A stretch of DNA of 64,000 nucleotides from an uncultured Christensenella sp. (GTDB lineage Bacteria; Bacillota; Clostridia; Christensenellales; Borkfalkiaceae): the NCBI GenBank assembly GCA_910585595.1, contig CAJUET010000002.1:135418-199417 (forward strand), written 5' to 3'. A program made the translations under genes and the position numbers. The notes under the pieces were generated by a model. It was given only the letters and a program-made list of their open reading frames with translations. It was not told where the DNA came from and did no database searches. The number at the start of each line of letters is the position of its first letter. Position 1 is the stretch's first letter. Positions 38,202 to 57,690 of the stretch are shown here, piece after piece.

Positions 38202-38278
38202 TGGTTGAGGTGACGTGACTTGAACACGCGACCTCTTGGTCCCTAACCAAGCGCGCTACCAAACTGCGCTACACCTCA
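38202..38278 (-). tRNA. tRNA-Pro with anticodon AGG (A34)
   Basis: Hand-folded 77-nt cloverleaf with encoded CCA: TGAGGTG-TA-GCGC-AGTTTGGTA-GCGC-G-CTTGG-TTAGGGA-CCAAG-AGGTC-GCGTG-TTCAAGT-CACGT-CACCTCA-A-CCA. The architecture closely parallels B. subtilis tRNA-Pro(UGG) except for A at position 34. Confidence 0.85.
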
Positions 38279-38487: not shown

Positions 38488-39687
38488 TTATCTTCTTATG
38501 ATTTCGCAATTTTCAGGGAACGCGCCTTCCGCCACTTCGCAGTCATCCGAGATAACAACGCGTTTAAGACTTTCGCAAAAATGAAACGCTGCTTCGCCGA
38601 TATAATCTACTCCCTGCGGTATTTTGATATCCGAAAGCATTTCACAGCCGTAGAACGTGTGACGTTCTATTTCCGTTACGTCGTCGGGTATTTTTATACT
38701 TTTCAGACTTTTACAATCGGAAAACGCAAATTCGCCTATTTGGCTCACGCTTTCGGGAATTTCCAAACGGTCGAGACTTTTACAGTTCAAAAAAGCGCTT
38801 TTGCCGATTTGCGTTATGCCGTCGGGTAATTTGATCTCGTTCAGATTTTCGCACCAGGCAAACGCATTCTCTCCCATTTGCGTTACGTCAAGCGGAATAT
38901 CTATGCGCGCAACGTTTTTGCAACAGGCAAATGCGTCCTCTCCGATTTGCGTGACGCCGTCGGGAACGGTATACGCTTTAACGTCGCGCCCCTCTGGCAT
39001 TTTTACGATCCGACGCATATCTTTGCTGAACAATACCCCGTCTCTGTCGCAAAAATTCCTGTTGTTTTGATCGACGGTGATCGTTTCAAGGCTGTCGCAG
39101 CAGACGAACGCGCCCCTTCCGATTTGCGTCACGCTGCCCGGTATTTTAATACGCACAAGACTTTTACAGCCGTAAAACGCGCTTTCGCCTATATAAAGCA
39201 CGCTATCGGGAATTTCGACACCTGCAAGATTTTTACAATAGTGAAATGCTCTTTCGCCGATTTGGATGACGGTATCGGGAATTTCCACGTTTTCAAGACC
39301 GGCGCAATAACGGAACGCCCTTTCGCCGATTTGTGTTACGTCATTTGGAATATGATAATTTGCAATATCAGATCCTTCGGGCATCTTGATGATTCGACGC
39401 ATATCCTTGCTGAACAATACCCCGTCTATATCGCAATAATATTTGTTGTTCTCATCAACGTTAATACTTTTCAGACTTTCACAGCCGTTAAAAGCGTTTA
39501 TCGCGATTTGCGTTACGGAAGCAGGTATTTCCAAACTGTTAAGACTGCTGCAACCGCTGAACGCACCTTTATTTAACCGTGTTAGAACACCCATATTTAT
39601 ATAGGGTTGAGGGTTCTCCAAGATTTTGCCTTTCGGGGTGTTGTTGTAGCACAGTTCTCGTAAATGTAAACGGCAAAAAATCATCAC
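38488..39687 (-). CDS. BspA-type leucine-rich-repeat (LRR_5) protein without recognisable signal peptide
   Basis: About 14 units of I.IP..VT.IG..AF..C..L. The first ~30 aa are non-repeat and non-hydrophobic. Confidence 0.75.
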   Translation of the reverse strand: MMIFCRLHLRELCYNNTPKGKILENPQPYINMGVLTRLNKGAFSGCSSLNSLEIPASVTQIAINAFNGCESLKSINVDENNKYYCDIDGVLFSKDMRRIIKMPEGSDIANYHIPNDVTQIGERAFRYCAGLENVEIPDTVIQIGERAFHYCKNLAGVEIPDSVLYIGESAFYGCKSLVRIKIPGSVTQIGRGAFVCCDSLETITVDQNNRNFCDRDGVLFSKDMRRIVKMPEGRDVKAYTVPDGVTQIGEDAFACCKNVARIDIPLDVTQMGENAFAWCENLNEIKLPDGITQIGKSAFLNCKSLDRLEIPESVSQIGEFAFSDCKSLKSIKIPDDVTEIERHTFYGCEMLSDIKIPQGVDYIGEAAFHFCESLKRVVISDDCEVAEGAFPENCEIIRR

Positions 39688-39892
39688 TTAAAATAATAAT
39701 GAAAGAAGTCAGACAGAAATGTTTGGCTTTTTTATTTTGCCTAAAATGCAATGATTTTTTGGTAGCACTCCGAGAACGTAAGCAAGTCGTTTACATTTAC
39801 AGCGTGATTGCAACATTAGCGAGCCTTTGTCCGAACAGTGCTACACTGCCCCTTTGCCGAAAGGCTAATAAAATCTTGGAGGATAAAAAGAA

Positions 39893-40195
39893 ATGAAAAA
39901 AGTAGTTTACTCAATAACAAAGGTAAACAAAGACGAGAAGTTGAAAGGTGTAGGTTATCTGGTTGAAGGTAACTTACTTATCCCCTCTACTTCCAGCAAA
40001 GGTAACGCTTATATAAGAGTATTTGAAGATGTTACCGAAAAATGCAAAGCCGTAAAAGACACGGATAACGAGTTCAAAGGTTACGTTACGGTCGCTTACG
40101 AAAATATCCACGTATTCAATAAAGAGAAAAATCATTACGATACATTGGATTACGTAGAAACAACCTATTATATATGGTTCAAATACATTGATTGA
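39893..40195 (+). CDS. hypothetical protein (100 aa)
   Basis: GGAGGA RBS 8 nt upstream of the ATG. First gene of the block. Confidence 0.6.
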   Translation: MKKVVYSITKVNKDEKLKGVGYLVEGNLLIPSTSSKGNAYIRVFEDVTEKCKAVKDTDNEFKGYVTVAYENIHVFNKEKNHYDTLDYVETTYYIWFKYID

Positions 40196-40206
40196 GGTGC
40201 TTGAAA

Positions 40207-40437
40207 ATGTTTGAATATGATTTCTTTGACGGTGATCACTTTATCACGTTCGATATAGTTGAAATAGATGATGATGACGAAACGGTTACGGTAGCAATAT
40301 CTAATCAAGGTCGTATAACGCACGATACTTTCAATTTATTTGAAGATGAAGCATTAAAAGACATTTGCGAAAATCGTTACTTTGAATTTGGCTTATATCA
40401 AGACAAAATTTACATAAACGATTTTGAGTGCTTATAA
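40207..40437 (+). CDS. hypothetical strongly acidic protein (76 aa)
   Basis: ATG 40207 after GAGGTG RBS. Contains DIVEIDDDDETV and FEDEALKD tracts. Confidence 0.6.
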   Translation: MFEYDFFDGDHFITFDIVEIDDDDETVTVAISNQGRITHDTFNLFEDEALKDICENRYFEFGLYQDKIYINDFECL

Positions 40438-40449
40438 GGGGTATTTCAA

Positions 40450-40566
40450 ATGGACGAAATGACTTACATGGAAATAATGAAGCAAGACTATCCGAAAGAC
40501 TTTGCCGATGATGACGAATTTATATCGGCACTGTTAGATTGGTGCGAAAACAAGGAGGACAGATAA
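40450..40566 (+). CDS. hypothetical small acidic protein (38 aa), below the track cutoff
   Basis: MDEMTYMEIMKQDYPKDFADDDEFISALLDWCENKEDR. Its TAA overlaps the next ATG (ATAATG). Confidence 0.45.
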   Translation: MDEMTYMEIMKQDYPKDFADDDEFISALLDWCENKEDR

Positions 40567-41030
40567 TGAACGTATTTATTGGCGGTTCTATCAGCTTTGA
40601 CTATCTCGACTATACCATAACGGACGAGTTAGACAAGTATATGAACGGTGAACTTGAAATCTTTGTAGGTGATGCTTACGGAGTAGATAAGCTCGTTCAG
40701 AAGTATTTGGATAAAAACGGGTATCGCAACGTAACGGTCTATGCAAGTAACGGACGAGCAAGAAATAATATCGGGCTTTGGAAAGTAAAAGCTATTGAAG
40801 TTCCGAGCGACGTTTACGGCAGAGAGTTCTATACATATAAAGACTTTGCAATGAGTACCGACTGTAATTTCGGCTTTATGATATGGGACGGAAAAAGCAG
40901 AGGCACGCAAGCGAACATACTGCGTTTAATCAATATAAATAAGGGCGTGAATGTATATCTCCCCTACCTTCGTCAAATGAAATCTATCAACGATTATAAA
41001 GACTATAAAAAACTTATGGAGGAAATATGA
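40566..41030 (+). CDS. SLOG-superfamily (DprA/LOG/YpsA-like Rossmannoid) protein
   Basis: Start at ATG 40566 (MNVFIGGS). VGDAYGVDKLVQKYL ... VTVY ... FMIWDGKSRGTQANI pattern resembles DUF1273/DUF2493-type SLOG proteins. Confidence 0.5.
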   Translation: MNVFIGGSISFDYLDYTITDELDKYMNGELEIFVGDAYGVDKLVQKYLDKNGYRNVTVYASNGRARNNIGLWKVKAIEVPSDVYGREFYTYKDFAMSTDCNFGFMIWDGKSRGTQANILRLININKGVNVYLPYLRQMKSINDYKDYKKLMEEI

Positions 41031-41578
41031 ACAGAGTTGCAATGGTAATTGGCTCGTGGGGTTCGTACAACGAATGTAACGAACGAGCGTTAGGCAGTCA
41101 ATGGCTGGACTTCGACGATTACGACGATTGGGACGAAATCGTAGAAGAACTTAAAAAAGAAGGCTTTGAGCTGGATGGCGTCGACGAAGAACTATTTGTG
41201 CAGGACATCGAGGGCGTTCCTACTTCAAGCACCGATTGGGATAACACGCACCCCAAAGAGATATTTGAGCTTATGAAAAAGTCCGGCGTTCTGGACAATG
41301 AATATAAATACGAGCTTATGGAAGCGTACTGCGAGGTTAGATCGTTCAATGAATGGTCTGACCTCGTTTCAGATTACGAAGAAAATTGGGATAGAGATAT
41401 TGTCTTTTACAAGAATAAGACAATGCTCGACGTGGCTTATGAAATTATAGACGAATGTTACAACTTGGAAAAGATGCTTGGAAATCTTGCCAGCTATTTC
41501 GACTATAACGCATTTGCAAGGGATTTGAGTTACGACGGATACACGGAAACGTCAAACGGCGTGATTGAAATTAGATAA
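41027..41578 (+). CDS. ardA: antirestriction protein ArdA
   Basis: Aligns by eye along its whole length to Tn916 Orf18/ArdA: N-terminal GSWGSYNE..LGSQWLDF, central LFVQDIEG, C-terminal LDVAYEIIDE...YFDYNAFARDLSYDGYTETSNGVIEI. Very acidic. Confidence 0.85.
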   Translation: MNRVAMVIGSWGSYNECNERALGSQWLDFDDYDDWDEIVEELKKEGFELDGVDEELFVQDIEGVPTSSTDWDNTHPKEIFELMKKSGVLDNEYKYELMEAYCEVRSFNEWSDLVSDYEENWDRDIVFYKNKTMLDVAYEIIDECYNLEKMLGNLASYFDYNAFARDLSYDGYTETSNGVIEIR

Positions 41579-41602
41579 AAAATATAAGGAGGTTTTGGAA
41601 AA

Positions 41603-41878
41603 ATGGACTTTACTGTTTTACACAAGGGTAAGACATACTGTTTGAACACCGCCGACGAATTATACATATTCGGGTTGGGTATTGAAATGGGCATTGAAGA
41701 AAAACTGCAAACGGATATTATAACATTCATTGATTTTATCCGACAATGCCATAAAACAGACTGTTGCAATGCCCCGTTAAAGCCGTTTACTACCTTTATA
41801 ACCGATTGGTGGAACGAGTTTCACAACAAAGACAAGATATTTATAGTAAACAAATTTTACGAAATAAAAAATCAATAA
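41603..41878 (+). CDS. hypothetical protein (91 aa)
   Basis: AGGAGG RBS, co-directional in the block. Confidence 0.55.
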   Translation: MDFTVLHKGKTYCLNTADELYIFGLGIEMGIEEKLQTDIITFIDFIRQCHKTDCCNAPLKPFTTFITDWWNEFHNKDKIFIVNKFYEIKNQ

Positions 41879-41890
41879 GGAGTTATTAAA

Positions 41891-42316
41891 ATGGAAACCA
41901 ACACTCAACCTACCCTTCAAGAAAAGAAGAACAAAGCAATCGAGATTATGCACACTCTCGACATCTACAAGCCGTACATAGAAGGCTTTAAGCAATCCGA
42001 CAAGGTTTGCTTCTTTGAAGGCTTTGGCGGCTTTTGGGTTTATCAAGAACCCGAAATAGAAGCCAAGATGCGTGAACTTGAAGAACAGTACAAATGCAAA
42101 GTTTACGCAATCACGCACGAATTTACCGACTTTGGGGAACTGTACGATTTCCTTATCGTAACGAACTATCCTGAAGAATGGGAAGATTCCGTTTACAGCG
42201 TAGGAAATAAACATACGGTATTTGCCTACGTTTGGAACAAGTCAGACGAAGATTGCAGCGAGTTCGGAAGCATTACCGTACAATCATTCGGTGGCGGTAT
42301 TCGGAGGGTTGCATAA
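41891..42316 (+). CDS. hypothetical protein (141 aa)
   Basis: AAGGAG RBS. The stop overlaps the next start. Confidence 0.6.
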   Translation: METNTQPTLQEKKNKAIEIMHTLDIYKPYIEGFKQSDKVCFFEGFGGFWVYQEPEIEAKMRELEEQYKCKVYAITHEFTDFGELYDFLIVTNYPEEWEDSVYSVGNKHTVFAYVWNKSDEDCSEFGSITVQSFGGGIRRVA

Positions 42317-42627
42317 TGAAGAAAGTATATATTGTACAATTCGATTGGGCAACTCCCGATGCAAGCGACGTTGACCTTTACGTTTACGATAGTTACGACA
42401 AGGCTTACGACAAATTCAAAGAACTTATATGCGCCGAGCGTAAACCCGAAAATTCGTGGGTTGGCGACGTTGAGTTCGATGACGAAGGCTATCCCGTTGA
42501 CGATCACTACGAGTTCGATTTCGAGGACAACAATTCGGGCGAATCCGAAGTTTGGTGGCACATTACCGATAAGAACGATTGGTATCAATACTCGAATATA
42601 GACTTGCTTGTTATGGAGGTTATGTAG
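42316..42627 (+). CDS. hypothetical highly acidic protein (103 aa), DNA-mimic candidate
   Basis: ATG 42316 overlaps the previous TAA. By hand count about a quarter of residues are D/E (e.g. VEFDDEGYPVDDHYEFDFEDNNSGESE). Confidence 0.6.
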   Translation: MKKVYIVQFDWATPDASDVDLYVYDSYDKAYDKFKELICAERKPENSWVGDVEFDDEGYPVDDHYEFDFEDNNSGESEVWWHITDKNDWYQYSNIDLLVMEVM

Positions 42628-42629
42628 TA

Positions 42630-42908
42630 ATGACAAAGAAAGAACTTTACGATATGACATTTAACGAAGCGGCAGAAAAGTTATGCGAAACAAATGACTG
42701 TATAACCACTTACGAAACGCTGAAATCGTTTGCTGTTATGAACGTAGAAAACGACAGCTTCAATGTGGCTATACATATACTCGAAGCGTTACGGTCATAC
42801 CCAGCCTATTATTACAATTACGATTATTCAATGGGTACGCTCGACACCCCTACTGCTCTGACATTACACGTCGATTTGGAAGATTACTGCGAGGAGGATC
42901 AATTATGA
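42630..42908 (+). CDS. hypothetical protein (92 aa)
   Basis: ATG 42630 after GGAGG. ATGA overlap with the next ORF. Confidence 0.55.
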   Translation: MTKKELYDMTFNEAAEKLCETNDCITTYETLKSFAVMNVENDSFNVAIHILEALRSYPAYYYNYDYSMGTLDTPTALTLHVDLEDYCEEDQL

Positions 42909-43150
42909 GAAACACGAAAGAAATTAAGCCCCTGCTTACCGCTATCTATTGCCTTAACCGTGTGGGCGAAAAAGACAAACAAATAGACCTGATTTGTGAT
43001 TATGCGTTCAGAAGATTATTCGGCGCTAACACGAACTTGCTGGCTATCGCTTGTATCGGACAGACAAAAGAAACTATCGAACAGCAAGTAAACGAATTAC
43101 TCAAATTAGATACCGAGTTCAATAAATATTTGGAGGAATACAAGAAATGA
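42905..43150 (+). CDS. hypothetical protein (81 aa)
   Basis: ATGA overlaps at both ends. Confidence 0.55.
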   Translation: MRNTKEIKPLLTAIYCLNRVGEKDKQIDLICDYAFRRLFGANTNLLAIACIGQTKETIEQQVNELLKLDTEFNKYLEEYKK

Positions 43151-43350
43151 ACGGATTTAAGACACAGGCTTATATAAGTTCTCTGAACAAGGGCTTAATT
43201 ACCCCGACACACAAAGACGAAATAACGGTGCTTGAAAAGGTCGGCGACAACGACTACATAGTAGATTATAAGGGCGTGCGCTGTCATGCCCTTTTTAATT
43301 GGTTTGTGTGTGCGTACTTCGCAGACGATTTATATAGGAGGGTAAACTAA
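43147..43350 (+). CDS. hypothetical protein (67 aa)
   Basis: Coupled to both neighbours. Confidence 0.5.
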   Translation: MNGFKTQAYISSLNKGLITPTHKDEITVLEKVGDNDYIVDYKGVRCHALFNWFVCAYFADDLYRRVN

Positions 43351-43979
43351 TGGGACAGTATTACAGAGCAATAGTCAAAAAGCAAAACAAGCGCAACGTC
43401 GTATATAACCGCTATGTTATGAAAGACGGCAAGCCCAAATATATGATGGCTAAACTTACCGAGCATTCGTGGTGGCGAAACGATTTCGTAAATGCAGTAT
43501 GCCTTGCAATATACGAAAGCAAAGAAAAGCGCCGTGTTGCTTGGATTGGCGATTATGCCGAAAGTTATTTAGAAAGTATCGGCAAAGACAATTTCAACGG
43601 CTTGAAGCAAAAGCAAATAAAAAGGCTTTGCAATCAGACTTGGGATTGCGAAGGCGTTGCAGTTGAGCCTACCGAATTTACGTTAGACGGAAAGTTTATC
43701 GTAAATCACACGAAGAAAGAATATTTCACCGGCACGCAATACTTTGAAAACGGTTGTATGCGTTCTCAAGAATATGGCGATTGGTGTATGCACCCTCTAC
43801 CGCTATTGACTTGCATCGGCAACGGATTGGGCGGTGGCGATTACCACTCTCCCACTGCCGACAGTTCGGAAGAATATATCGGCGCATGGGCTTGGGACGA
43901 AATAAGCATAGAAGATAAAGCACCTACGGACTACAACGAAATTGAACTTATATTCAAAGAAAAAGGATGGGAAGATTGA
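43350..43979 (+). CDS. hypothetical protein (209 aa)
   Basis: MGQYYRAIV...LTEHSWWRNDFVNAV...VAWIGDYAE...LGGGDY. No family recognised. Confidence 0.6.
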   Translation: MGQYYRAIVKKQNKRNVVYNRYVMKDGKPKYMMAKLTEHSWWRNDFVNAVCLAIYESKEKRRVAWIGDYAESYLESIGKDNFNGLKQKQIKRLCNQTWDCEGVAVEPTEFTLDGKFIVNHTKKEYFTGTQYFENGCMRSQEYGDWCMHPLPLLTCIGNGLGGGDYHSPTADSSEEYIGAWAWDEISIEDKAPTDYNEIELIFKEKGWED

Positions 43980-44689
43980 TGGAAAGCAATGAAATCTTGG
44001 AACAACTCAAAGCAAAAGGACTGCTAAAATTTAAGGCAGTAAATATCAGCGATAATAAGGCTTATAGGTGTTACATAGAAAGCGACGGTAACATATTTGT
44101 GTATGCTCACAATAAAAAGCGCTACGGCTGGCGCTTCAATGAAGAACAGTTTTTAATATGCTATACACCGTTAATACCTAACGATGAAAATTTGCAATGG
44201 AAAAAGCGACTGAAACGTGCCGTAAATCTCTGCCGTGAAAGCGGACTATGGGCGGAACTCGCTGTCGTATGGGACAACCTTTACAAATATGTTACGCTCG
44301 ACGAAAAAAGAAAGATTTACGATATGAGTTGGGATAATCGTGAAGCGACCATTGCCTACTGCAAAGAACACTACCCCTTTATGATCAAAACCGACAAAGA
44401 CGGTAAGGAATATCTCGACACGGATTATATATGGGAACTATCCCGTTGCGAACTCAAATCTATGTATTTCGGCTATAACAATACGGAAGAAAAAGAACAA
44501 ATCCGTAAAGCCATTTCTGAACATAGACAATACACCATACCGAGAATACGAACTACTTACGACGTGAGCTTCAGTTATAACCCCGAACGCAACCGAGCTT
44601 TCTACAGTGAAGAATATAAAGACTGCGGTAACGGACACTACTATCTTGCGCTTAACCACAGCACGGCGGTATTCTGCGAGGACGATTAA
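43979..44689 (+). CDS. hypothetical protein (236 aa)
   Basis: TGATG overlap with the previous ORF; an alternative ATG lies at 43967. Ends ...CGNGHYYLALNHSTAVFCEDD. Confidence 0.6.
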   Translation: MESNEILEQLKAKGLLKFKAVNISDNKAYRCYIESDGNIFVYAHNKKRYGWRFNEEQFLICYTPLIPNDENLQWKKRLKRAVNLCRESGLWAELAVVWDNLYKYVTLDEKRKIYDMSWDNREATIAYCKEHYPFMIKTDKDGKEYLDTDYIWELSRCELKSMYFGYNNTEEKEQIRKAISEHRQYTIPRIRTTYDVSFSYNPERNRAFYSEEYKDCGNGHYYLALNHSTAVFCEDD

Positions 44690-44695
44690 ACGGTA

Positions 44696-44941
44696 ATGCC
44701 TATGACGTCAAACAATGAATACGGATACACAGTACGATATAAGCAGGTAGGTTCAAGTAAATGGAAAGTTTATCTCGTAACGAACTCATACGACAGCGCA
44801 TTATGGAGTGTGCGTTGGTACGAGCGAGATCCGCCCAAGAACAGAATTACAGGTAAAGCGATTGAAAACGTAATATGGGATATATTCCCGATAAAAACGC
44901 TATTCGAGTATAAATGGCGTTGGCGTGGTTGTCCGTTCTGA
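44696..44941 (+). CDS. hypothetical protein (81 aa)
   Basis: Co-directional ORF, Trp/Arg-rich. Confidence 0.5.
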   Translation: MPMTSNNEYGYTVRYKQVGSSKWKVYLVTNSYDSALWSVRWYERDPPKNRITGKAIENVIWDIFPIKTLFEYKWRWRGCPF

Positions 44942-44999
44942 ATACGGATAACCGCGTCTTTTCTTTTATCTACAAAATTCAAATAAGGAGTTATACACA

Positions 45000-45206
45000 A
45001 TGAAAATCTCAACAGACAAACTTTACTATCTTTGCAACAAGTATCAATGGTTCACTAACGGCGACTGCCGACAATACGACTTGTTATTCAAACTAAACAG
45101 AGAGGGCGCACCACTCGAAAAATTGGCGACTATTATTTGGTTTTGCTCTTTCGGTTACAACGAACAAGACATTCTCAAAATCTTAAAACAGGAGGCAGAT
45201 TTATAA
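45000..45206 (+). CDS. hypothetical protein (68 aa)
   Basis: AAGGAG RBS. Its TAA overlaps the next ATG. Confidence 0.55.
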   Translation: MKISTDKLYYLCNKYQWFTNGDCRQYDLLFKLNREGAPLEKLATIIWFCSFGYNEQDILKILKQEADL

Positions 45207-46306
45207 TGACTACTCTCAACCTTACCGCAAGCGGTAAAGCGCAAGAACTTATCCTTGCCTACTTGCAAGCAAACGCAAGCGACGTTCTTGCCGAAAAGAT
45301 TAACAGCGGTACGCCGTTCACGAAAGACGGCAAACAACTCATCAACAAGAAAACGCTCGACGGGTTTATGACCTTTGCGAGCGGTGAAGCAAAGAAGCTC
45401 GCCGAGAAAAACGCAAGATCGGCGTGCGTAGAAGATACCGTCGTTTACGGCTGGGCTATCCACTACTTTGAAGAAGATAACATCGAAGGCAAACTTTTCA
45501 ATGAGGACGGCACAGAGTACAAATCGGTTGTGAAGACTACACCAAGAACCACAACGAAACCCGTTAAGGTCGAGCCACCCAAACCGAAACAACAGCAAGC
45601 GTCCTTGTGGGATATGATTGAGCAATCGGATAAAAAGCCCGTAAAAGTTCAAGCCGACGACCACGAAGTAATAGACGATACTGACGATGACGGCGAAGAA
45701 CTGAATAACGATTACACTCCGGAAGAACTTGCCAAAGAAGCCGAAGAAATTAACGAGCCGACTGTAGAAGAAAAGCCTGTTCAATTATCGAAGCCCTATC
45801 CCCCTTTCTATACACAATATTTGGAACTTTCGGAACACACCGACGGTATCGTTCTTATCCGCTTGGGCGACTTCTACGAAGCGTTTGACAGCGATTCCGA
45901 AACATTAGCCGAAGAACTCAATATGACGCTCACAAGCCGTCAAATAACCGATGACGAGCGTGTGCCTATGATTGGCTTCCCCTTTCACTCGGTTGACGCT
46001 TACATAGCCAAAATACGCAAAAATCACGACGTCGTAATTATTGAATCAAACAGCGACATTAAAACGCTTGCACAGATAGTAACCGCAGACGGAAAAGCCG
46101 TTGACAGCGGAACAGGCGAAGTTCTTGACGATGATATAGAAGAACTTACAGAAGCAGAAATGCGACAGTTCGACGGCGACATAGGCGAGCCAAAAACAGT
46201 TGATGCGCAAGACGATGAAAGAACTCCCTACTCCCTTTCTTCGTTTGACAAAGAAACGATGATTTATCTTTACGATTTGCTCGACGGCAAATTGGATATA
46301 GCGTGA
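45206..46306 (+). CDS. fusion protein: N-terminal PcfK-like (AcrIIA9-family-like) domain, acidic/Pro-Lys linker, C-terminal MutS domain I (mismatch-binding domain)
   Basis: Start at ATG 45206 (AGGAGG RBS). N-terminal ...VVYGWAIHYFEEDNIEG, as in PcfK-like proteins. The C-terminal PPFYTQYLELSEHTDGIVLIRLGDFYEAFDSDSETLAEELNMTLTSR...VPMIGFPFHSVDAYIAKIRKNHDVVIIE aligns by eye with E. coli MutS residues ~12-95, including GDFYE. Confidence 0.7.
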   Translation: MTTLNLTASGKAQELILAYLQANASDVLAEKINSGTPFTKDGKQLINKKTLDGFMTFASGEAKKLAEKNARSACVEDTVVYGWAIHYFEEDNIEGKLFNEDGTEYKSVVKTTPRTTTKPVKVEPPKPKQQQASLWDMIEQSDKKPVKVQADDHEVIDDTDDDGEELNNDYTPEELAKEAEEINEPTVEEKPVQLSKPYPPFYTQYLELSEHTDGIVLIRLGDFYEAFDSDSETLAEELNMTLTSRQITDDERVPMIGFPFHSVDAYIAKIRKNHDVVIIESNSDIKTLAQIVTADGKAVDSGTGEVLDDDIEELTEAEMRQFDGDIGEPKTVDAQDDERTPYSLSSFDKETMIYLYDLLDGKLDIA

Positions 46307-46316
46307 GGTGAACATT

Positions 46317-47648
46317 ATGACGATTGAAGATGCTGAAAAGTTGACGATACCAAAGTATCTGACAGAGCGCATTCGCAAAGCTGATTTTAAGAAACACCCG
46401 ACTCCAGAAAAATCCATTAGGTTCTACGCCTATCTTGCATTATGGAAACGCAAAGAGCTTATAAAGATTACCGTTGCAGCAAAGCACTATCGCAGAAAAC
46501 TGTATATGAAGATAGTTGCTATTCACGGCTTGCACGCACAAAGATGCTATATCAAAGATTTGGAATATAACTATATGGGCGCAATGGGCTATCGTGTAGG
46601 CTGGTTTGATGAAGGCATACAAAAATACTATAAATGGTACGAGCGCGGCTGGTGCTGGGCAGACGATAAATATTACGATCCCTACGCACCTATCGTAAAT
46701 TATGAAGTCATAGATAAACTGCCTGAATACAAATACAGCGCTTACAAGCAATACGGCGGTATTGACTTATTCAAATACTTGCGTGTTTACGAGAAATATC
46801 CGCAAGCGGAAATGTTCGTGAAATTCGGTTTATCGACGTATGCGTTAAGCAAGCAGTTATTGGAAAAATCAGCAAAGGACAAGCAGTTCCGTAAATGGCT
46901 GATTAGAAACAGCAGTGAGTTGCATGGTAGGTACTACTATGTAACCACCATTCTATCTTCTTATAAAACGGGCAAACCGTTAGACCATATACAGCAGCTC
47001 GAAAGACAGAAGAAAAGCTTTTGCAATAAAAACGGAAGCTACCCCGAATTACGGCGTTTCTTCAAAGGACAGACGATTAAGTTTTTGGAATACATACAAA
47101 AGCAAGATACGAGCATCGCAACATACAACGATTACTTCAATGCTTGCAATTATCTGGGCTTGGATATGAGCGAAGATAAAAACGTATTCCCCCACAACTT
47201 CAAGCATTGGCACAATATGCGCATAGACCAATATCACACGGCAAAGGCAATGAAAGACGCCGAAGAACGCAAAGAGCTGTATGCGAAGTTCGCCAGCGTT
47301 GCCGAAAAGTATTTGAGCTTACAGCGAAACAGAGAAGCGTTTATCGTCATTATAGCAAGGAGTCCAAGCGATTTGATGCACGAGGGCGATACCCTGCATC
47401 ACTGCGTGGGACGAATGAATTACGACCAAAAATTTGCGCGTGAAGAAAGCCTTATTTTCTTTGTCCGAAACGCATCCGAACCCCATATTCCATTCGTTAC
47501 AATGGAATATTCACTCAAGAACAAAAAGATATTACAATGTTATGGCGAACACGACCACAAACCGAACGACAATGTTTTGGAGTTCGTAAACAAAAAATGG
47601 CTACCGTTCGCAAACAGACAATTAAAGAAAATACAAATAGCGGCATAA
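46317..47648 (+). CDS. PcfJ-like protein
   Basis: ATG 46317 after GAGGTG. The C-terminal EGDTLHHCVGRMNYDQKFAREESLIFFVR...PFVTMEYSL...ILQCYGEHDHKP resembles the PcfJ family. Follows the PcfK-like gene as in pCF10-type elements. Confidence 0.6.
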   Translation: MTIEDAEKLTIPKYLTERIRKADFKKHPTPEKSIRFYAYLALWKRKELIKITVAAKHYRRKLYMKIVAIHGLHAQRCYIKDLEYNYMGAMGYRVGWFDEGIQKYYKWYERGWCWADDKYYDPYAPIVNYEVIDKLPEYKYSAYKQYGGIDLFKYLRVYEKYPQAEMFVKFGLSTYALSKQLLEKSAKDKQFRKWLIRNSSELHGRYYYVTTILSSYKTGKPLDHIQQLERQKKSFCNKNGSYPELRRFFKGQTIKFLEYIQKQDTSIATYNDYFNACNYLGLDMSEDKNVFPHNFKHWHNMRIDQYHTAKAMKDAEERKELYAKFASVAEKYLSLQRNREAFIVIIARSPSDLMHEGDTLHHCVGRMNYDQKFAREESLIFFVRNASEPHIPFVTMEYSLKNKKILQCYGEHDHKPNDNVLEFVNKKWLPFANRQLKKIQIAA

Positions 47649-47667
47649 CCGCAAAGGAGTAAAAATT

Positions 47668-47991
47668 ATGAACAATTATTATAGAGTTACAGGTTACTGC
47701 GAGCAAAAAGATTTTTGCTTTATTATGGACTGCTACGGTATGTATGAGAAGTTATGGCAATTCAGCTCTATGCTCATACAAAAAGGCTTAAAAGTCTTGG
47801 AGGTCGGTAACGACACAAAGTTTATGGACGGCAATATAGACCGTATAGACGAAAACAACGAAAAAGTATTTTTACGAGCAAACGCCGAAGGCAAGCCCGT
47901 ATACACCACCCAGACGATTAACGGCATTACATATAAAGCCGTAAAAGTTGCCGACAAAATCTACATACCCGATAGAACGCAAACCGTATAA
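47668..47991 (+). CDS. hypothetical protein (107 aa)
   Basis: AAGGAG RBS. Last gene before the terminator. Confidence 0.55.
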   Translation: MNNYYRVTGYCEQKDFCFIMDCYGMYEKLWQFSSMLIQKGLKVLEVGNDTKFMDGNIDRIDENNEKVFLRANAEGKPVYTTQTINGITYKAVKVADKIYIPDRTQTV

Positions 47992-48005
47992 CCGAATACA
48001 AAGTC

Positions 48006-48041
48006 AAAGCCCGGATTCCTTTCGGAGTCTGGGCTTTTTTT
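48006..48041 (+). terminator. rho-independent terminator closing the plus-strand block
   Basis: 14-bp stem AAAGCCCGGATTCC / GGAGTCTGGGCTTT (two G-U pairs), 4-nt loop, TTTTTTT. Confidence 0.8.
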
Positions 48042-48044
48042 GTG

Positions 48045-48284
48045 TTAATCGTCATCTTCTAAATCATTGAAGTAATCTCTATCAAAAAACTCTGACAAGG
48101 TAATGCCTGCACCCTCGCAAAAACTCTTGATAGTTGTTACTTTCGGACACTTAGTTCTTCCTTTCATTAAATCATAAAGAGCCGAAGGCGATTTGCCACC
48201 GTTTAGACACGCCTTACAAATATTCTTACCTTTTTCTTCGCAGATCTCCTCAATACGTTTTAAGATTGCTTCGTTCGTTTTCAT
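48045..48284 (-). CDS. XRE/Cro-type HTH regulator (79 aa)
   Basis: Start moved to ATG 48284 (AAGGAG RBS). KNICKACLNGGKSPSALYDLMKGRTK...TIKSFCEGAGITLSEFF HTH pattern. Confidence 0.7.
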   Translation of the reverse strand: MKTNEAILKRIEEICEEKGKNICKACLNGGKSPSALYDLMKGRTKCPKVTTIKSFCEGAGITLSEFFDRDYFNDLEDDD

Positions 48285-48362: not shown

Positions 48363-48391
48363 TTGACTTGCTACTGCAATTTTGCTATAAT
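48363..48391 (+). promoter_or_regulatory. strong sigma-70 promoter flanked by 14-bp direct repeats (operator candidates)
   Basis: TTGACT, 17 nt, TATAAT. GGAGTTCCACGATA occurs at 48349-48362 and again at 48399-48412. A third core copy, TTCCACGAT, is at 48308-48316. Confidence 0.65.
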
Positions 48392-48415: not shown

Positions 48416-48964
48416 ATGGTTGTGTGTTTTTTAGGTCATAGAAAAATAACTAACGCCGAACAAATTAAAACTCGGCTAATCGAAATCGTTTCAAATCTGA
48501 TCTCAAACGGAGTAGATACTTTTTTATTCGGCAGCAGAAGTGATTTTGATATCCTATGTTGGGAGGTCGTTACCGATCTGCAAGAGCAATGCCCCCACCT
48601 TAAACGGATAAGCTATAATGCACACCACGAAACTGCCTTCACTTCTAAAGAAGAACGAGAAAGCTTTGAAAAGTTTTTCTCTCAAATGGTTAAGCACGAA
48701 GTTCATTATACTGACTACGAAGAATCCGTCAGTTCCAAGAAATCCCTTAACGCAAACAAAAACGCATACATAATGCGCAATCAAGAAATGATCGACAATA
48801 GCGACGTATGCGTGTTCTACTATAACAAAGACTATCTACCGCCAAAGCGGAAAGCAGCCAATAAATTTCTTCCCGACTATCAACCTAAAAGCGGTACAGC
48901 AATCGCTTACGCTTACGCTGTTCAAAAGAAGAAGCAAATTTATAATACATTCATTGAAGTATAA
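48416..48964 (+). CDS. SLOG-family protein (DUF1273/YpsA-like)
   Basis: Start at ATG 48416 (MVVCFLGHRKI...). NGVDTFLFGSRSDFDILCWEVV..LQEQCPHLKRISY ... RNQEMIDNSDVCVFYYN ... SGTAIAYAYAVQKKKQIYN matches the GHR...G..G.D...A......P.....SGT pattern of YpsA-like proteins. Confidence 0.7.
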   Translation: MVVCFLGHRKITNAEQIKTRLIEIVSNLISNGVDTFLFGSRSDFDILCWEVVTDLQEQCPHLKRISYNAHHETAFTSKEERESFEKFFSQMVKHEVHYTDYEESVSSKKSLNANKNAYIMRNQEMIDNSDVCVFYYNKDYLPPKRKAANKFLPDYQPKSGTAIAYAYAVQKKKQIYNTFIEV

Positions 48965-48975
48965 AAGGCTTAAAT

Positions 48976-50259
48976 ATGTTTAGAAAAATTCAAAAACCAA
49001 TGTCCGTATTCACAATCAGTATATTACTGTTTTTAATCGTGTTAAGCACTTGTACTACTTTTCTACAAATTCATACAGCACAGGCTCAAACATTTGAGCA
49101 ACATATTCCTACCTTTGGTCTATACTGCAAAGATGAAACCATTATACAATCTGGCACTGTTAAATACGATTTATCGGATGCCGAAACCATTGCGCAAGGA
49201 AAAAGCTCAATACAATCAAGTTATCAAATTGCGGCAGTTAATCGCACAGTTGAATTTGTAATACCTTTTATATCGTCAGCAGAAAATGCCCCACTCTTTT
49301 CTATTAAAGCAAATGAGCAAAAAATCGACTGCTCAATTTGGTACGGAAACCCCTTCTTTTCGTCCGATGAAGATACAGACTTTGAAAGCCTTATTGACGA
49401 TACATATTCAACCGATATTGATAAAGCCATAAAAGGAACGCTCTATACAATAACACCAGACAATGAAACGATTTCGATTGAATTATCTTTTGCCGAAAAC
49501 AAACGAAGTAGTTTCATATATGAAACCTCTAATCAATTATCGGCATCAAGTTCAGCCAGCGGAACTTACACTTGGACTTTGAAAAACGCTTTTATAAAAC
49601 CCGAATATAAATTTTTCATACTTGGCGAAAATTCCAACCACTCTTTTTCATGCAGCAGTGAATATCAAACGGAAACAATAACTTGCAAAGATTACATTGA
49701 TCGTCAATATGAATACTTGAAAGAACTTTACGATGAATACGGGATTGCCGTTGATTTTCTCTATTCAATGTTTAATCTGCTATTGCAAAACAAGCAAAGC
49801 GTAGTTTATGACGATTTATTCTTTAATTCTATAAATACACAAAGATATAACGTATATAAGTTTTCTATACAGCTCGATACGACTACACTCATCAATTACG
49901 AACTTCCTGTAAACATACAACGCAATTTTGCTTTTACTCCAACGATATATTTGCTTGAGCAAAAGAATTTAGGAAACTACCCTATATTCTACATTGCTGA
50001 ACTAAACAATGAAATACCCTATATCATTGAATCAAGCGTCAAATTCATTAAAGACGGACTTACATATAGTGCCGAAACCGCCGACGATTATTACTTCGTT
50101 TTCAGTTCGTCCGAAAAGCCCCAAAGTGCCACGTTCCCTACTAACAGCAACGATAATAAGGCTTTGATTATCTGCTGTTCTGTTATAGGTGGAATCGCAT
50201 TTATCGCCTTAATTGTTCTGATAGGAATTGTAATACATCAAAAGGTTAAACACCGCTAA
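48976..50259 (+). CDS. secreted protein with N-terminal signal/anchor and C-terminal TM anchor, unknown function
   Basis: 427 aa. N-terminal hydrophobic segment ending AQAQ. C-terminal LIICCSVIGGIAFIALIVLIGIVI followed by HQKVKHR. Confidence 0.65.
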   Translation: MFRKIQKPMSVFTISILLFLIVLSTCTTFLQIHTAQAQTFEQHIPTFGLYCKDETIIQSGTVKYDLSDAETIAQGKSSIQSSYQIAAVNRTVEFVIPFISSAENAPLFSIKANEQKIDCSIWYGNPFFSSDEDTDFESLIDDTYSTDIDKAIKGTLYTITPDNETISIELSFAENKRSSFIYETSNQLSASSSASGTYTWTLKNAFIKPEYKFFILGENSNHSFSCSSEYQTETITCKDYIDRQYEYLKELYDEYGIAVDFLYSMFNLLLQNKQSVVYDDLFFNSINTQRYNVYKFSIQLDTTTLINYELPVNIQRNFAFTPTIYLLEQKNLGNYPIFYIAELNNEIPYIIESSVKFIKDGLTYSAETADDYYFVFSSSEKPQSATFPTNSNDNKALIICCSVIGGIAFIALIVLIGIVIHQKVKHR

Positions 50260-50276
50260 AAACCGCTAACTGACAG

Positions 50277-50340
50277 CAGGGCGTGTGCTTGTCTTGATAC
50301 GAGAGCGGCGCTGGCGCGCCGCCGACAAGCACACGCCCTG
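50277..50340. repeat. GC-rich nested hairpin
   Basis: Perfect 17-bp arms CAGGGCGTGTGCTTGTC / GACAAGCACACGCCCTG enclosing an inner 7-bp hairpin GCGGCGC-TGGC-GCGCCGC. No flanking T-run. Confidence 0.8.
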
Positions 50341-50374
50341 CGCAACCCAACCCAACGAAAACCATAGTAACAAA

Positions 50375-50447
50375 TAGCGACGGCGAAAATTCGGGCGACA
50401 CGCGCAGGCTTTCCGTGTCCGCCCGAATTTTTCTTTCGCCGTCGCTA
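50375..50447. repeat. long imperfect hairpin (about 28 bp paired) abutting the rep stop codon
   Basis: TAGCGACGGCGAAAATTCGGGCGACACG - loop - CGTGTCCGCCCGAATTTTTCTTTCGCCGTCGCTA. One 1-nt and one 5-nt bulge by hand pairing. Confidence 0.8.
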
Positions 50448-50449
50448 CA

Positions 50450-51484: not shown

Positions 51485-51518
51485 TTTGACTTTAACGAGG
51501 GATAACCGTCTTATAAAG

Positions 51519-51731
51519 TTATTTACGCCGCTTGTTATACTCGGGCGTATTCTTATAAAGTAGAGCGTACTCGAAATTGCCGTGTACTTTCATTGCTCGC
51601 TTGAGCGCCTTTTTATCACCGTTCTCGGCGGCTTCACGCAATTCATTCTCGCTGTAATGATAGCCACTCTTGAGTTCGCTTACGGAATATTTATGCGCCA
51701 ATTTCTTGTGCCTTAAAGTGAAAAATCCCAC
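51519..51731 (-). CDS. hypothetical basic protein (70 aa)
   Basis: GTG start with AAGGAGGT RBS embedded in the end of the upstream gene. Confidence 0.45.
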   Translation of the reverse strand: MGFFTLRHKKLAHKYSVSELKSGYHYSENELREAAENGDKKALKRAMKVHGNFEYALLYKNTPEYNKRRK

Positions 51732-51733
51732 GC

Positions 51734-53124: not shown

Positions 53125-53128
53125 AGGC

Positions 53129-55510: not shown

Positions 55511-55522
55511 AGATAATTCTCC

Positions 55523-57453: not shown

Positions 57454-57480
57454 ATTTTTTGTACCTCCTTGTTAGAATAA

Positions 57481-57518
57481 AAGGCGCTAAATAAACTTTT
57501 CCGTCTAAATAGCGCCTT
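57481..57518 (-). terminator. hairpin (possible attenuator) immediately after the 52-aa ORF
   Basis: 9-bp stem AAGGCGCTA / TAGCGCCTT with a 20-nt loop, followed on the minus strand by TTATT. Confidence 0.35.
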
Positions 57519-57531
57519 CGTTGTTGGGGTT

Positions 57532-57690
57532 TTACAGTAAGCCGTTCCAGCCGAAGAAGTTGAGCATTTTGGCAAGCCAACGTAAGCCGTATGCAATCCA
57601 TTCAAAGAGTTTGGCGAGAATTGATAACGGCCACGTTCCGACCAGCACCACAAGGATTACTACAAGTAGTATCAATATCAATTTCTTCAT
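57532..57690 (-). CDS. 52-aa hydrophobic protein, candidate major coat protein (below the ORF-track cutoff)
   Basis: ATG 57690 after GAGGTG RBS. Hand translation: MKKLILILLVVILVVLVGTWPLSILAKLFEWIAYGLRWLAKMLNFFGWNGLL. Confidence 0.5.
   Translation of the reverse strand: MKKLILILLVVILVVLVGTWPLSILAKLFEWIAYGLRWLAKMLNFFGWNGLL

Follow-up and report, generated by a model that had tools for sequence, protein, structure and literature searches.

The chief new result of our analysis is a conserved, non-coding hairpin region (39609-39889) that lies immediately upstream of a block of small genes in the window, the whole 64,000-nucleotide stretch of DNA that was analysed. This hairpin of ~280 nt is maintained by compensatory substitutions and carries sequences matching sigma-A-type -35 and TG-extended -10 elements; by the same matches, these are correctly spaced only on the left arm, which points away from the block, while on the block-facing right arm they lie much further apart. 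We see about an even chance that an integrated mobile island of gut Clostridia has in this block its establishment and anti-restriction operon, switched on by an Frpo-like activation from single-stranded DNA. The coordinates of the individual features are given in Table 1.

Table 1. Features of the island's left end, the upstream hairpin and the gene block (positions of the window).
Feature	Position	Strand	Remarks
Left terminus of mobile island	39560..39608	.	shared DNA begins here in six flanking contexts
Conserved non-coding region	39609..39889	.	one long imperfect hairpin, ~50 long-range pairs
Left arm promoter elements (predicted)	39643..39670	-	-35 TTTACA 39665-39670; TGC-extended -10 TACAAC 39643-39651
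Apical hairpin then T-run	39702..39739	+	covariation rich in + strand G.U pairs
Right arm promoter elements (predicted)	39790..39847	+	-35 TTTACA 39790-39795; TGC-TACACT 39839-39847
Gene 1 leader	39859..39892	+	conserved GCC-GAAA-GGC mini-hairpin and GGAGG ribosome-binding site
Gene 1	39893..40195	+	100 aa; conserved, without family; 45/80 loci
Gene 2	40207..40437	+	76 aa, pI 4.05, without family; 27/80 loci
Gene 3	40450..40566	+	38 aa, pI 4.05, without family; rare, 4/80 loci
Gene 4	40566..41030	+	154 aa, weakly SLOG-like; rare, 2/80 loci
Gene 5, ArdA anti-restriction protein	41027..41578	+	183 aa, pI 4.05
Gene 6	41603..41878	+	91 aa, without family; poorly conserved
Gene 7	41891..42316	+	141 aa, without family; highly conserved
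Gene 8	42316..42627	+	103 aa, pI 4.05, without family; 34/80 loci
Gene 9	42630..42908	+	92 aa, pI 4.09, without family
Gene 10	42905..43150	+	81 aa, without family; 25/80 loci
Gene 11	43147..43350	+	67 aa, conserved, without family; 63/80 loci
Gene 12	43350..43979	+	209 aa; rare insert, 4/80 loci
Gene 13	43979..44689	+	236 aa, without family; rare insert, 4/80 loci
Gene 14	44696..44941	+	81 aa, basic (pI 9.6), conserved, without family; 45/80 loci
Internal terminator-like hairpin	44922..44968	+	15-bp stem plus T-run
Gene 15	45000..45206	+	68 aa, without family; 23/80 loci
Gene 16, PcfK-like + MutS domain I	45206..46306	+	366 aa
Gene 17, PcfJ family	46317..47648	+	443 aa; PcfJ profile 102 bits
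Gene 18	47668..47991	+	107 aa, conserved, without family; 62/80 loci; block's last gene
Intrinsic terminator	48006..48047	+	48006-48037 plus T-run; closes block

Each element possesses a single copy of the hairpin, placed directly 5' of whichever gene opens its block (about 70 loci). Its DNA fold scores z = -6.6 on the plus strand and -6.2 on the minus strand. In the alignment 86.6% of the cells are paired as against 41-49% in slid controls, 50 of the 61 pairs show double changes, and 328 cells are double-changed as opposed to 73-93 in those controls; in 500 shuffles these pairing and double-change values were never reached. The strand test is weak: although the minus strand gives the more stable fold in 26 of the 36 loci (Wilcoxon p = 1e-5), the G.T pair counts (41 vs 53) fail to separate the strands, and the basal helix and the apical hairpin carry plus-strand wobble pairs. 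At its base (39616-39625) the long hairpin pairs with the GGAGG site of the gene 1 leader, and its apical hairpin, which resembles an intrinsic terminator, probably insulates the block from transcription reading in from the left.

The spacer between the left-arm promoter elements is 16 nt here and 16-18 nt in all 36 loci. Their -10 hexamer, which in most loci is TACAAC and thus lacks the usual final T, starts with TA in 32 of the 36 and has an A at -11 in 35 of them (one row is misaligned); in its downstream half the -10 usually lacks pairing (alignment columns 207 and 209). As the right-arm -35, about half of the relatives have TTGACT or TTGACA; its distance to the -10 (46 nt here; 44-50 nt in 34 of the 36 loci) is too great for a duplex promoter. 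The original prediction had spotted no canonical sigma-70 promoter upstream of 39893, in agreement with our scan, which listed no sigma-70-like site on the plus strand of 39688-39892. This absence is meaningful because a near-consensus promoter (48363-48391) is present for the other operon of the island, and it is likely that the block is without a working promoter in duplex DNA. A counterpoint is that the right-arm TGC-TACACT of this locus could serve as a -35-independent extended -10 in duplex DNA. The accompanying guess of an unusual, possibly ssDNA-dependent, expression gains support from the conserved hairpin and its promoter elements.

Promoters active in ssDNA, Frpo and ssi, are reportedly found on F and ColIb-P9 (Masai and Arai 1997; Bates et al. 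1999; Nasim et al. 2004). The present hairpin can be likened to them by architecture: it is an imperfect hairpin of ~300 nt just 5' of early genes, with the -35/-10 in the stem, the bases around the -10 unpaired, and a predicted activity only while the template strand is single-stranded. It departs from them in its Gram-positive hosts, in the 'split' design with one correctly spaced arm and a 30-nt loop-out on the other, and in placing the ribosome-binding site in the basal helix and a terminator-like hairpin at the apex. A comparable case is EGeRS1, the establishment-gene regulatory sequences of the pLS20-family plasmids (Val-Calvo et al. 2021, PMC8708921), which are likewise ~325 nt of conserved structured DNA directly 5' of the ribosome-binding sites of establishment/anti-restriction operons in Firmicutes and lack a constitutive promoter, although they occur in several copies per plasmid as opposed to one per element here. 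The transferred strand of pLS20 is the non-template strand, and its authors therefore rejected an ssDNA promoter (PMC8708921). A distant-mode DNA search of the PLSDB plasmids with the hairpin returned no match.

The block is situated at the very edge of low-GC DNA of foreign origin, the GC content dropping from 0.51 to ~0.40 at 38 kb. Six different left contexts hold near-identical copies (99.8-100%), every one of which starts at 39560-39564, and the terminus holds the conserved motif CACCTTTATTTAACCGTGTTAGAACAC (39564-39590). In the relatives, the genes upstream are unrelated housekeeping genes, and the block is always ~300 bp from the end of the integrated island. The island also encodes a rolling-circle Rep of the G2P type, which is found with a Zot-like ATPase module downstream of the block in ~40% of the relatives. 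Among the 35 relatives with enough sequence, only 14 have Rep within 8 kb downstream, and in some genomes (L062, L089 and L100) chromosomal genes appear within ~3.5 kb after gene 18, directly so in L062. The block is always convergent with the Rep gene; hence, its template strand is the Rep sense strand. We found no relaxase, oriT or type IV secretion genes belonging to the island, nor other conjugation genes, and the region of 38-64 kb has no capsid, tail, terminase or lysis genes. Accordingly, the idea of a conjugative leading region finds no support here. A small sigma-like (sigma region-4) protein is encoded at 58884-59279.

It is conceivable, if rather unlikely, that the hairpin is instead a single-strand origin (sso, minus-strand origin) or some other cis site for replication, transfer or integration, with the block being served by an ordinary, weak or regulated duplex promoter, be it the extended -10 TGC-TACACT (39839-47) or one read by the above sigma-like protein. 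Rolling-circle plasmids and filamentous phages have single-strand origins in the form of long hairpins, whose promoter-like -35/-10 sites RNA polymerase reads, and this resemblance speaks for such an origin together with the G2P-type Rep, the single-copy hairpin at the island terminus, the plausible extended -10 of the right arm and the sigma region-4 protein encoded nearby. However, the hairpin goes along with the block and not with Rep, being present in loci without Rep within 8 kb, and always adjoins the ribosome-binding site of the first gene, whichever gene that is. Moreover, the right-arm -10 is not conserved over the loci, where TCCTTT, GTCGTT, TGTTTT and others take its place. The priming and promoter roles are not exclusive, since Frpo does both.

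At the island's extreme left end, the block itself forms a single tightly packed array resembling a transcription unit. Its 18 co-directional plus-strand ORFs (39893-47991, 8 kb), every one of them in frame, have a coding fraction of 0.98 and intergenic distances of -4 to +58 nt, and a GGAGG-type ribosome-binding site precedes 17 of them. The operon-like organisation of about 18 ORFs recognised in the original prediction is thus borne out, as are all eight of its start/stop overlaps (TAATG, ATGA or TGATG) and the acidity of genes 2, 3 and 8 (26-33% D+E). The single strong terminator that it saw closing the block is indeed present, but a second strong terminator-like hairpin (44922-44958) occupies the only sizeable gap in the block, between genes 14 and 15.

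Profile matches and alignments identify a true ArdA, a PcfK-like/MutS-domain-I fusion and a PcfJ protein among the products, in line with the ArdA and PcfJ named earlier. ArdA scores 63.9 bits in Pfam (cut-off 27) and aligns end to end with the Tn916 Orf18 ArdA (PDB 2W82), which it matches in acidity and in proximity to the end of an integrated element; it differs in its low identity (E = 3e-4, pairwise search), in ~18 extra residues and in belonging to an element without Tn916-type transfer genes. The expected PcfK-like domain is also recovered (33.3 bits, cut-off 27), but only over residues 47-94 and at the N-terminus of a fusion, where it is followed by an acidic linker, a previously missed MutS mismatch-binding domain I (2e-19) and an acidic tail. 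The mismatch-binding motif GDFYE is intact and is kept in 78 of 80 homologues (35-77% identity). No PLSDB plasmid encodes this fusion. PcfK is, as had been noted, the Pfam family of AcrIIA9 (PMC6739104), from which the present protein is set apart by its partial domain, the MutS fusion and the acidic tails. The PcfJ gene follows directly, giving the same family pair (PF14058, PF14284) as in pCF10-type elements; its start in public assemblies is 46317 as against 46308 in the earlier call. The SLOG protein placed in the block fared less well: gene 4 is sub-threshold against Pfam YAcAr (14.9 bits, cut-off 28.2; phrog_289 1.4e-8), while a clear YpsA SLOG lies outside the block at 48416-48964.

The 13 remaining ORFs, for which no family could originally be named, have no above-threshold family assignment in Pfam, PHROGs or NCBIfam other than two PHROGs without assigned function matched by gene 12 (phrog_3156 6e-17). 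PDB sequence or profile searches with genes 1, 7, 12 and 13 were without match, and none of the 13 is linked to an anti-defence family in Pfam, PHROGs, NCBIfam or, for some, the PDB. Neither did they turn out to belong to ordinary phage replication or structural families. Two confident AlphaFold models, for gene 7 (pLDDT 92) and PcfJ (pLDDT 88), were both without a fold match in the PDB.

Comparison across genomes revealed ArdA, the PcfK-like/MutS fusion, PcfJ and about 10 conserved genes without family to be a collinear module of hundreds of genomes, found in at least 548 places of a species-representative genome collection, mostly gut Clostridia MAGs. This gene content and order recur in 80 loci fetched from other genomes (35-90% protein identity), and the block is therefore not a chance assembly. 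The collinear core comprises genes 1, ArdA, 7, 8, 11, 14, 16, 17 and 18, each present in 34-80 of the 80 loci, with gene 1 opening the block in most elements. The swappable inserts include orphan DNA methyltransferases: N6-adenine enzymes occur inside or just after the block in relatives (a 274-aa N6_Mtase in 12 loci), and one locus carries a 647-aa Dam/DUF4942 protein. These, along with ArdA and the PcfK family link, favour the proposed reservoir of anti-defence proteins; yet the nine-gene core indicates a fixed module with few variable slots, not a free reservoir, and the 13 ORFs lack any anti-defence family. Two deletion variants (L002 and L004) show that the block is dispensable once resident.

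The conservation of the core genes fits element housekeeping roles as well as it does counter-defence. It is unlikely, however, that the block is mainly a DNA-processing or maintenance module (replication restart, recombination, partition, regulation) with ArdA as its sole counter-defence gene. Sequence and order of the core are strongly conserved over hundreds of elements (mean column identity 68% for gene 7, with 2066 homologues, and 66% for PcfJ), which is atypical of fast-evolving anti-defence genes; the MutS domain I with its intact motif suggests DNA transactions, and PcfJ and PcfK have no demonstrated function beyond the AcrIIA9 link. Against this, methyltransferases and small acidic proteins fill the variable slots, the 18 genes gave no hit to a replication, partition or recombinase family, and the block persists in Rep-less islands.

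Under the Frpo-like activation of an establishment operon that we prefer, the apical terminator-like hairpin would shield the block from outside transcription until the minus strand (the template of genes 1-18) becomes single-stranded after rolling-circle replication, filament-type export or conjugative entry, and folds. The non-template -35/-10 would then come, at the correct spacing, from the left arm, the right arm would loop out its extra ~30 nt, and host RNA polymerase could start near 39850 and transcribe rightwards into gene 1. As a result, ArdA and the other products would be made in a burst while the incoming DNA is not yet a target of restriction, and the same start could prime complementary-strand synthesis, like Frpo. 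ArdA would block type I restriction through DNA mimicry; the acidic small proteins, the PcfK-like domain and the orphan methylases of the relatives are candidate counter-defence or establishment factors, as is the MutS-I fusion, possibly a decoy that binds mismatches or DNA ends. Since the island shows no relaxase, oriT or secretion system of its own, its entry as ssDNA is itself something we infer.

Anti-defence islands with ssDNA promoters are an established concept for plasmids (PMC11541004; PMC8708921), and Samuel et al. (Nature 2024, PMC11541004) described such islands from the leading regions of conjugative plasmids and ICEs. The block shares with these islands a series of small genes lined up in one orientation at an edge of a mobile element, the combination of ArdA, an Acr-family domain and orphan methyltransferases (here in the relatives) amid many genes without family, and a structured upstream region in place of an ordinary promoter. 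It is unlike them in the lack of an oriT, relaxase and type IV secretion system of the island's own, and of SSB, PsiB and toxin-antitoxin genes, in its gut Clostridia MAG hosts, and in a gene order that is a conserved core and not a mosaic. Finally, it is highly improbable that we are dealing with a tailed prophage's early region or with a decaying remnant without present function, despite the PHROG matches of ArdA, PcfJ, gene 12 and both halves of gene 16, the stand-alone PcfK-like proteins (~135 aa) in IMG/VR contigs and the deletion variants: phage structural and lysis genes are missing from 38-64 kb, 2.9 million viral contigs yielded only one full-length gene-16 relative versus at least 548 in genomes, and all 18 ORFs are intact, with copies from many samples being 99.9-100% identical.

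We file the block of genes 1-18 as an establishment/anti-restriction operon that lies at the edge of an uncharacterised family of Clostridia islands and carries a candidate single-strand-activated promoter. Its nearest known counterpart is the anti-defence island of plasmid leading regions, to which the original prediction had likened it, and the layout and some of the content are indeed common to both. However, the plasmid islands adjoin an oriT and a relaxase gene, the adjacency by which they are defined, and this the block lacks: a search for the expected conjugation module recovered no relaxase or T4SS family at 38-64 kb or in the 16 kb past the window. As layout and some of the content match without this adjacency, we treat the block as a variant of the leading-region islands. 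Its known anti-defence content comprises a clear ArdA, a partial PcfK-like domain and, in relatives only, methyltransferases; 13 of the 18 genes are unassignable.

All 18 genes in 39893-47991 are in frame on the + strand, and the same co-orientation is seen in 80 of 80 relatives. Nearly all are preceded by a GGAGG-type ribosome-binding site at 5-10 nt, with intergenic gaps of -4 to +58 nt and a coding share of 98% of the interval. The eight start/stop overlaps read earlier from the sequence are present to the exact position (as TAATG, ATGA or TGATG), and the three ORFs described as acidic have a pI of 4.05 with 26-33% Asp+Glu; ArdA (pI 4.05, 24% Asp+Glu), gene 9 (pI 4.09) and gene 16 (pI 4.3) are likewise acidic. 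A single terminator had been proposed to close the block: this terminator does occur, at 48006-48037, with a hairpin that ranks second to an internal one at 44922-44958, the best in the region, which sits in the only real gap of the block, between genes 14 and 15. The same scan agreed with the original prediction in detecting no sigma-70-like + strand site in the 205 nt 5' of gene 1, and it recovered an 11/12-consensus promoter at 48363-48391, ahead of the next + strand operon.

The named members of the block differ in how well their assignments stand. Gene 5 is ArdA (PF07275), with 63.9 bits in Pfam against a cut-off of 27 over residues 8-180, a match to phrog_2059 ("anti-restriction protein") at 9.5e-20 and a full-length alignment with the Tn916 Orf18 ArdA (PDB 2W82, residues 7-163 of the latter). 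The identification of gene 17 as PcfJ is equally upheld (PF14284, 102.4 bits, cut-off 25); public gene calls begin later than the 446-aa start variant of PcfJ and the 143-aa one of DndE. The SLOG protein placed within the block stays below threshold, as gene 4 scores 14.9 bits against the YAcAr cut-off of 28.2. The sole hint of this fold is a match to phrog_289 at 1.4e-8, and gene 4 is no more than a weak relative of SLOG proteins. Just beyond the block, 48416-48964 encodes a SLOG protein that is clearly of the YpsA family (37 bits, cut-off 27.7).

The PcfK-like assignment of gene 16 stands in part: PF14058 scores 33.3 bits against a cut-off of 27, in a partial match that covers residues 47-94 and profile positions 31-73 of 139. 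A phrog_7445 match extends over residues 47-130. AcrIIA9 does belong to the Pfam family PcfK, as the original prediction held (PMC6739104). However, a typical AcrIIA9-type protein would be a stand-alone Cas9 inhibitor of ~140 aa, whereas gene 16 encodes 366 aa and is fused to MutS_I; stand-alone PcfK-like proteins are encoded by phage contigs. This MutS domain I (70 bits) had been overlooked. Residues 198-287 align with residues 10-100 of E. coli MutS, including the GDFYE mismatch-binding motif (Phe-X-Glu), which is retained in 78 of 80 gene-16 homologues at only 35-77% identity. MutS domains II-V (connector, core, clamp and ABC ATPase) were not matched in gene 16. The NCBIfam MutS models score 72-75 bits against cut-offs of 480-642 and cover just the N-terminal 90 residues of MutS, hence the protein is without an ATPase. 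The gene-16 family has 223 representatives below 1e-30 at 50% clustering, ~100 of them full-length fusions; the fusion is encoded by none of the PLSDB plasmids and by a single contig among 2.9 million viral ones. To our knowledge, this widespread protein has apparently been studied by nobody. A MutS domain-I-like segment was also found within a "strawberry notch" helicase of the cyanobacterial (Chroococcidiopsis) plasmid NZ_CP097482.1 (250854-251135); hence, mobile elements have recruited the domain more than once.

The remaining 13 proteins had nothing above threshold in Pfam and no match in NCBIfam, where 17 of the 18 block proteins went unmatched; in the PHROG search only gene 12 was matched, to two function-unknown PHROGs. 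Likewise, PDB sequence and profile searches of genes 1, 7, 12, 13 and 17 returned no match. Gene 7 has 2066 homologues, none of them named. Its AlphaFold model (pLDDT 92, pTM 0.88) found no match in a fold search of the PDB (best E = 0.02, TM <0.32), and neither did the PcfJ model (pLDDT 88, best E 0.18). Judged by these models, gene 7 and PcfJ are real, folded and conserved proteins without a known type, a result that speaks neither for nor against a role in anti-defence. That the unnamed ORFs are new anti-defence proteins, as originally predicted, is no more than a reasonable hypothesis; several of them may instead serve the element's own DNA handling, a role to which their strong conservation points.

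To place the block among its relatives, we scanned one genome per species for gene 16, which yielded at least 548 relatives, and fetched 80 loci, mostly from MAGs labelled Christensenella/Christensenellaceae or unclassified Clostridia, Clostridiales and Eubacteriales. The kept gene order is 1-2-ArdA-7-8-(9/10)-11-14-15-16-17-18, with the occurrence of individual genes given in the table. Alternative inserts in the same slots include DUF7222, DUF7659, DUF6809, DUF4326, a DnaJ-domain protein, a 274-aa N6-adenine methyltransferase (12 loci) and a 647-aa Dam/DUF4942 methyltransferase. In two otherwise identical copies parts of the block are missing: contig L002 lacks the window's 40172-43464, while L004 lacks all to the left of 44060 as well as 45035-45992; one internal deletion among these joins genes 1 and 12. 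A resident island can thus do without parts of the block. Little is known of the counter-defence genes that mobile elements carry in gut Firmicutes, and restriction barriers make these bacteria hard to engineer. About ten conserved and intact genes of the module are candidates, with homologues that number from hundreds to thousands for each, alongside ArdA as a clear positive control and slots that vary naturally.

Features of the island in the window and occurrence of block genes among the 80 fetched loci
Feature	Position	Strand	Loci	Remark
Left-arm promoter elements	39643-39670	-		points out of island
Gene 1		+	45/80	
Gene 3		+	4/80	
Gene 4	40566-41030	+	2/80	
ArdA (gene 5)	41027-41578	+	40/80	
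Gene 7		+	51/80	
Gene 8		+	34/80	
Gene 11		+	63/80	
Gene 12		+	4/80	
Gene 13		+	4/80	
Gene 14		+	45/80	
Gene 17 (PcfJ)		+	71/80	
Gene 18		+	62/80	
Operon ending in G2P-type HUH Rep	50450-58400	-		~8 kb
Zot-like P-loop protein	52303-53124	-		in Rep operon

Variable cargo follows the block in relatives, for instance a Tet(M)/Tet(O)-type ribosomal protection gene (L028, 12710-14626), an RHS-repeat toxin (L056, 14553-20390) and a DndD-like ATPase (L053, 8557-10638); the island family thus moves resistance, toxin and defence genes. Beyond this cargo, 14 of the 35 loci with sufficient sequence encode a convergent Rep, accompanied either by the Zot-like set of the window or by a 705-aa membrane P-loop protein; in pairwise BLAST this ATPase shares only a short motif with the window's Zot-like protein. 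In other relatives chromosomal genes come soon after gene 18, either directly (L062) or, as a chromosomal-type GH3 gene, with either two small ORFs or a methyltransferase plus an 858-aa ORF in between (L100/L089). Hence, the block can stand alone as an island of ~6-9 kb. No direct or inverted repeats of 13 nt or more bound these "block-only" islands.

By exact-protein look-ups the block was traced to dozens of metagenome contigs, which match its DNA at 99.8-100% identity, one of them being identical to the window; near-identical DNA was found in no plasmid or phage. The shared DNA starts at 39560-39564 in six different left contexts. Four of these are different BspA-type LRR genes, with the junction always at a G-A-F codon triplet, and another is a TrbL-like gene beside a VirB4-like ATPase. 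The latter is read as an insertion into another element, since the TrbL-like ORF is cut at the junction. The possibility that these VirB4/TrbL flanks (L008/L012) make the island conjugative was rejected, as the shared DNA ends there at the same base. Furthermore, the 5' neighbours of the first block gene in relatives are unrelated chromosomal genes, which confirms the position of the block at the island edge.

The left end adjoins BspA-type LRR (LRR_5) genes in several unrelated contexts and also in divergent relatives (window 39560-39621 and 38488-39687, - strand; L002, L003, L005, L013, L032, L038 and L041), invariably at the G-A-F repeat motif (AAnGCACC), and the conserved terminal motif resembles part of the LRR repeat (LTRLNKGAF). 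These junctions suggest that the island inserts site-specifically, at a repeat motif that surface-protein genes carry in multiple copies. The predicted outward-facing promoter of the left arm would read into the truncated LRR gene. MGVLTRLNKGAF is unlikely to be a real N-terminus driving the LRR genes, since it lacks a signal peptide and is 24 nt from the ribosome-binding site. The GC content drops from ~0.51 to ~0.40 at 38 kb, beside a tRNA-Pro gene (38202-38278, - strand, anticodon AGG) that lies 200 bp from the truncated LRR gene and could represent an earlier island border, independent of the 39560 junction.

On the right side the copies are collinear for at least 40 kb, with an HTH gene, YpsA and a membrane protein followed by the operon of the Rep (REP_ORF2-G2P, 40.9 bits, cut-off 27.8), which includes the Zot-like protein and several membrane/surface proteins; past it, the shared DNA encodes a small sigma-like protein, a LexA-like repressor and a Dnd cluster. 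Along this collinear stretch we saw no integrase, relaxase or secretion system. The Zot-like protein matches its PHROG at only 1.7e-7, and the transmembrane-segment candidates of the module include a 52-aa protein. The Rep module matches gut Enterocloster inoviruses in size (PMC10061712), and as an operon of ~8 kb it resembles inoviruses of gut Clostridia in both size and content. Besides the 52-aa hydrophobic protein, it encodes several N-terminally membrane-anchored proteins and a 793-aa coiled-coil/Flg_new surface protein. Much of this region is absent from some copies (48916-57582 from L004, 51682-55314 from L002). Beside the Rep gene, 51734-52306 (- strand) encodes a 190-aa protein that consists over nearly its whole length of basic repeats of the KKQAK/RE(Q)RLA type (such as KLAKKQAIREQRL), a composition by which it may be a DNA-coating or condensing protein.

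Directly before gene 1, a stretch of 330 nt is conserved even where gene-1 identity is just 36%. An HMM of this region finds one copy per element, always right before whatever gene opens the block. A few loci have two or three copies (L070 at 2021-2145, 4655-4917 and 7486-7770; L045; L056), which suggests tandem or nested islands. The window's hairpin (39609-39889) folds much better than shuffled controls on both strands (z = -6.6 and -6.2), and ~50 long-range pairs form in all 36 aligned loci. For the covariation test we specified a 61-pair structure ourselves, and used as controls partners slid by 1-3 columns and 500 shuffles. In this structure 86.6% of cells are paired, as against 41-49% in the slid controls, with 328 doubly changed cells against 73-93 and both-side changes at 50 pairs; none of the 500 shuffles reaches the observed pairing or covariation values. 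Independently, RNAalifold recovered the 13-bp helix at the centre, each column of which has 10-15 compensatory sequences. A long imperfect hairpin is thus kept by selection. Rfam holds no family for it, returning only a tRNA and a sub-threshold ctRNA match on the apical hairpin, and no distant DNA match was found among PLSDB plasmids, the pLS20 family included.

Both arms bear promoter elements. On the minus strand of the left arm, pointing out of the island, a -35 TT(G/T)AC(T/A) is followed by a spacer of 16-18 nt in 36 of 36 loci, TGC and a -10 hexamer that begins with TA in 32 of 36, usually as TAC. Mirror elements, TTGAC(T/A) (TTTACA in the window) and TGC-TAC, occur on the + strand of the right arm, toward the block, with 44-50 nt between them in 34 of 36 loci; this surplus of ~30 nt varies in sequence but keeps a stable length. 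Unpaired bases predominate in the downstream half of the -10 (alignment columns 207 and 209). In the basal helix the gene-1 ribosome-binding site is paired with 39616-39625. The apex, a hairpin with a T-run and many + strand G.U pairs, is predicted to be a terminator-like insulator on the + strand.

These features are compatible with a promoter activated in single-stranded DNA. In duplex DNA the block would be without a correctly spaced promoter facing it, and transcription from outside would halt at the apex. The minus strand, which is the template of genes 1-18, would fold when single-stranded, such that the left arm supplies the non-template -35 and -10 at correct spacing while the extra 30 nt of the right arm are looped out. 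RNA polymerase would then initiate near 39850 and proceed into gene 1, and the same start could also prime second-strand synthesis. That the elements would point toward the block on template-strand folding we infer from strand polarity. The proposal follows the principle of Frpo, the single-stranded DNA promoter of plasmid F (PMC11541004; PMC8708921).

The minus strand is the more stable fold in 26 of 36 loci (p = 1e-5); the counts of G.T and A.C pairs do not separate the two strands. The block always converges on Rep, so that its template strand is the Rep sense strand, which in Ff-type phages is the packaged strand. Minus-strand stability and convergence are weakly consistent with single-strand activation, while the many relatives without Rep are a point against it. 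Alternatively, the TGC-TACACT of the window might be an extended -10 promoter working in duplex DNA.

Taken together, these observations allow a joint reading of the single-strand proposal that we offer tentatively and consider rather doubtful as a whole. The hairpin would be a new Gram-positive "split" promoter activated in single-stranded DNA, its operon-facing -35 and -10 being ~30 nt too far apart in duplex DNA and brought to correct spacing by the template-strand fold. It would drive a conserved counter-defence/establishment operon in which one mechanism or more would be new, starting with a decoy made of MutS domain I and joined to an AcrIIA9-type domain. The operon would belong to so far undescribed integrative elements of gut Clostridia, which have no conjugation genes and may move in single-stranded form via Rep and Zot-like export. 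Single-strand-dependent activation was defined in enterobacterial plasmids, and the hairpin is a concrete, sequence-defined candidate for it outside of these. If the promoter model is true, the early-expressed genes of uncharacterised elements could be found from sequence alone.

Two further clusters share the island. A DndB-C-D-E phosphorothioation cluster (window 62307-64000, - strand; L017, 1-9976) precedes an AAA_15 ATPase, an SNF2/PLD helicase and a 936-aa protein that together look like a restriction partner. Upstream of the Rep operon, a regulatory cluster (58884-61309, - strand) encodes a LexA-like S24 repressor, a zinc-ribbon protein, an HTH_11 protein and a 131-aa protein with sigma-70 region 4 only; this sigma-like protein could direct the non-canonical promoters of the island.
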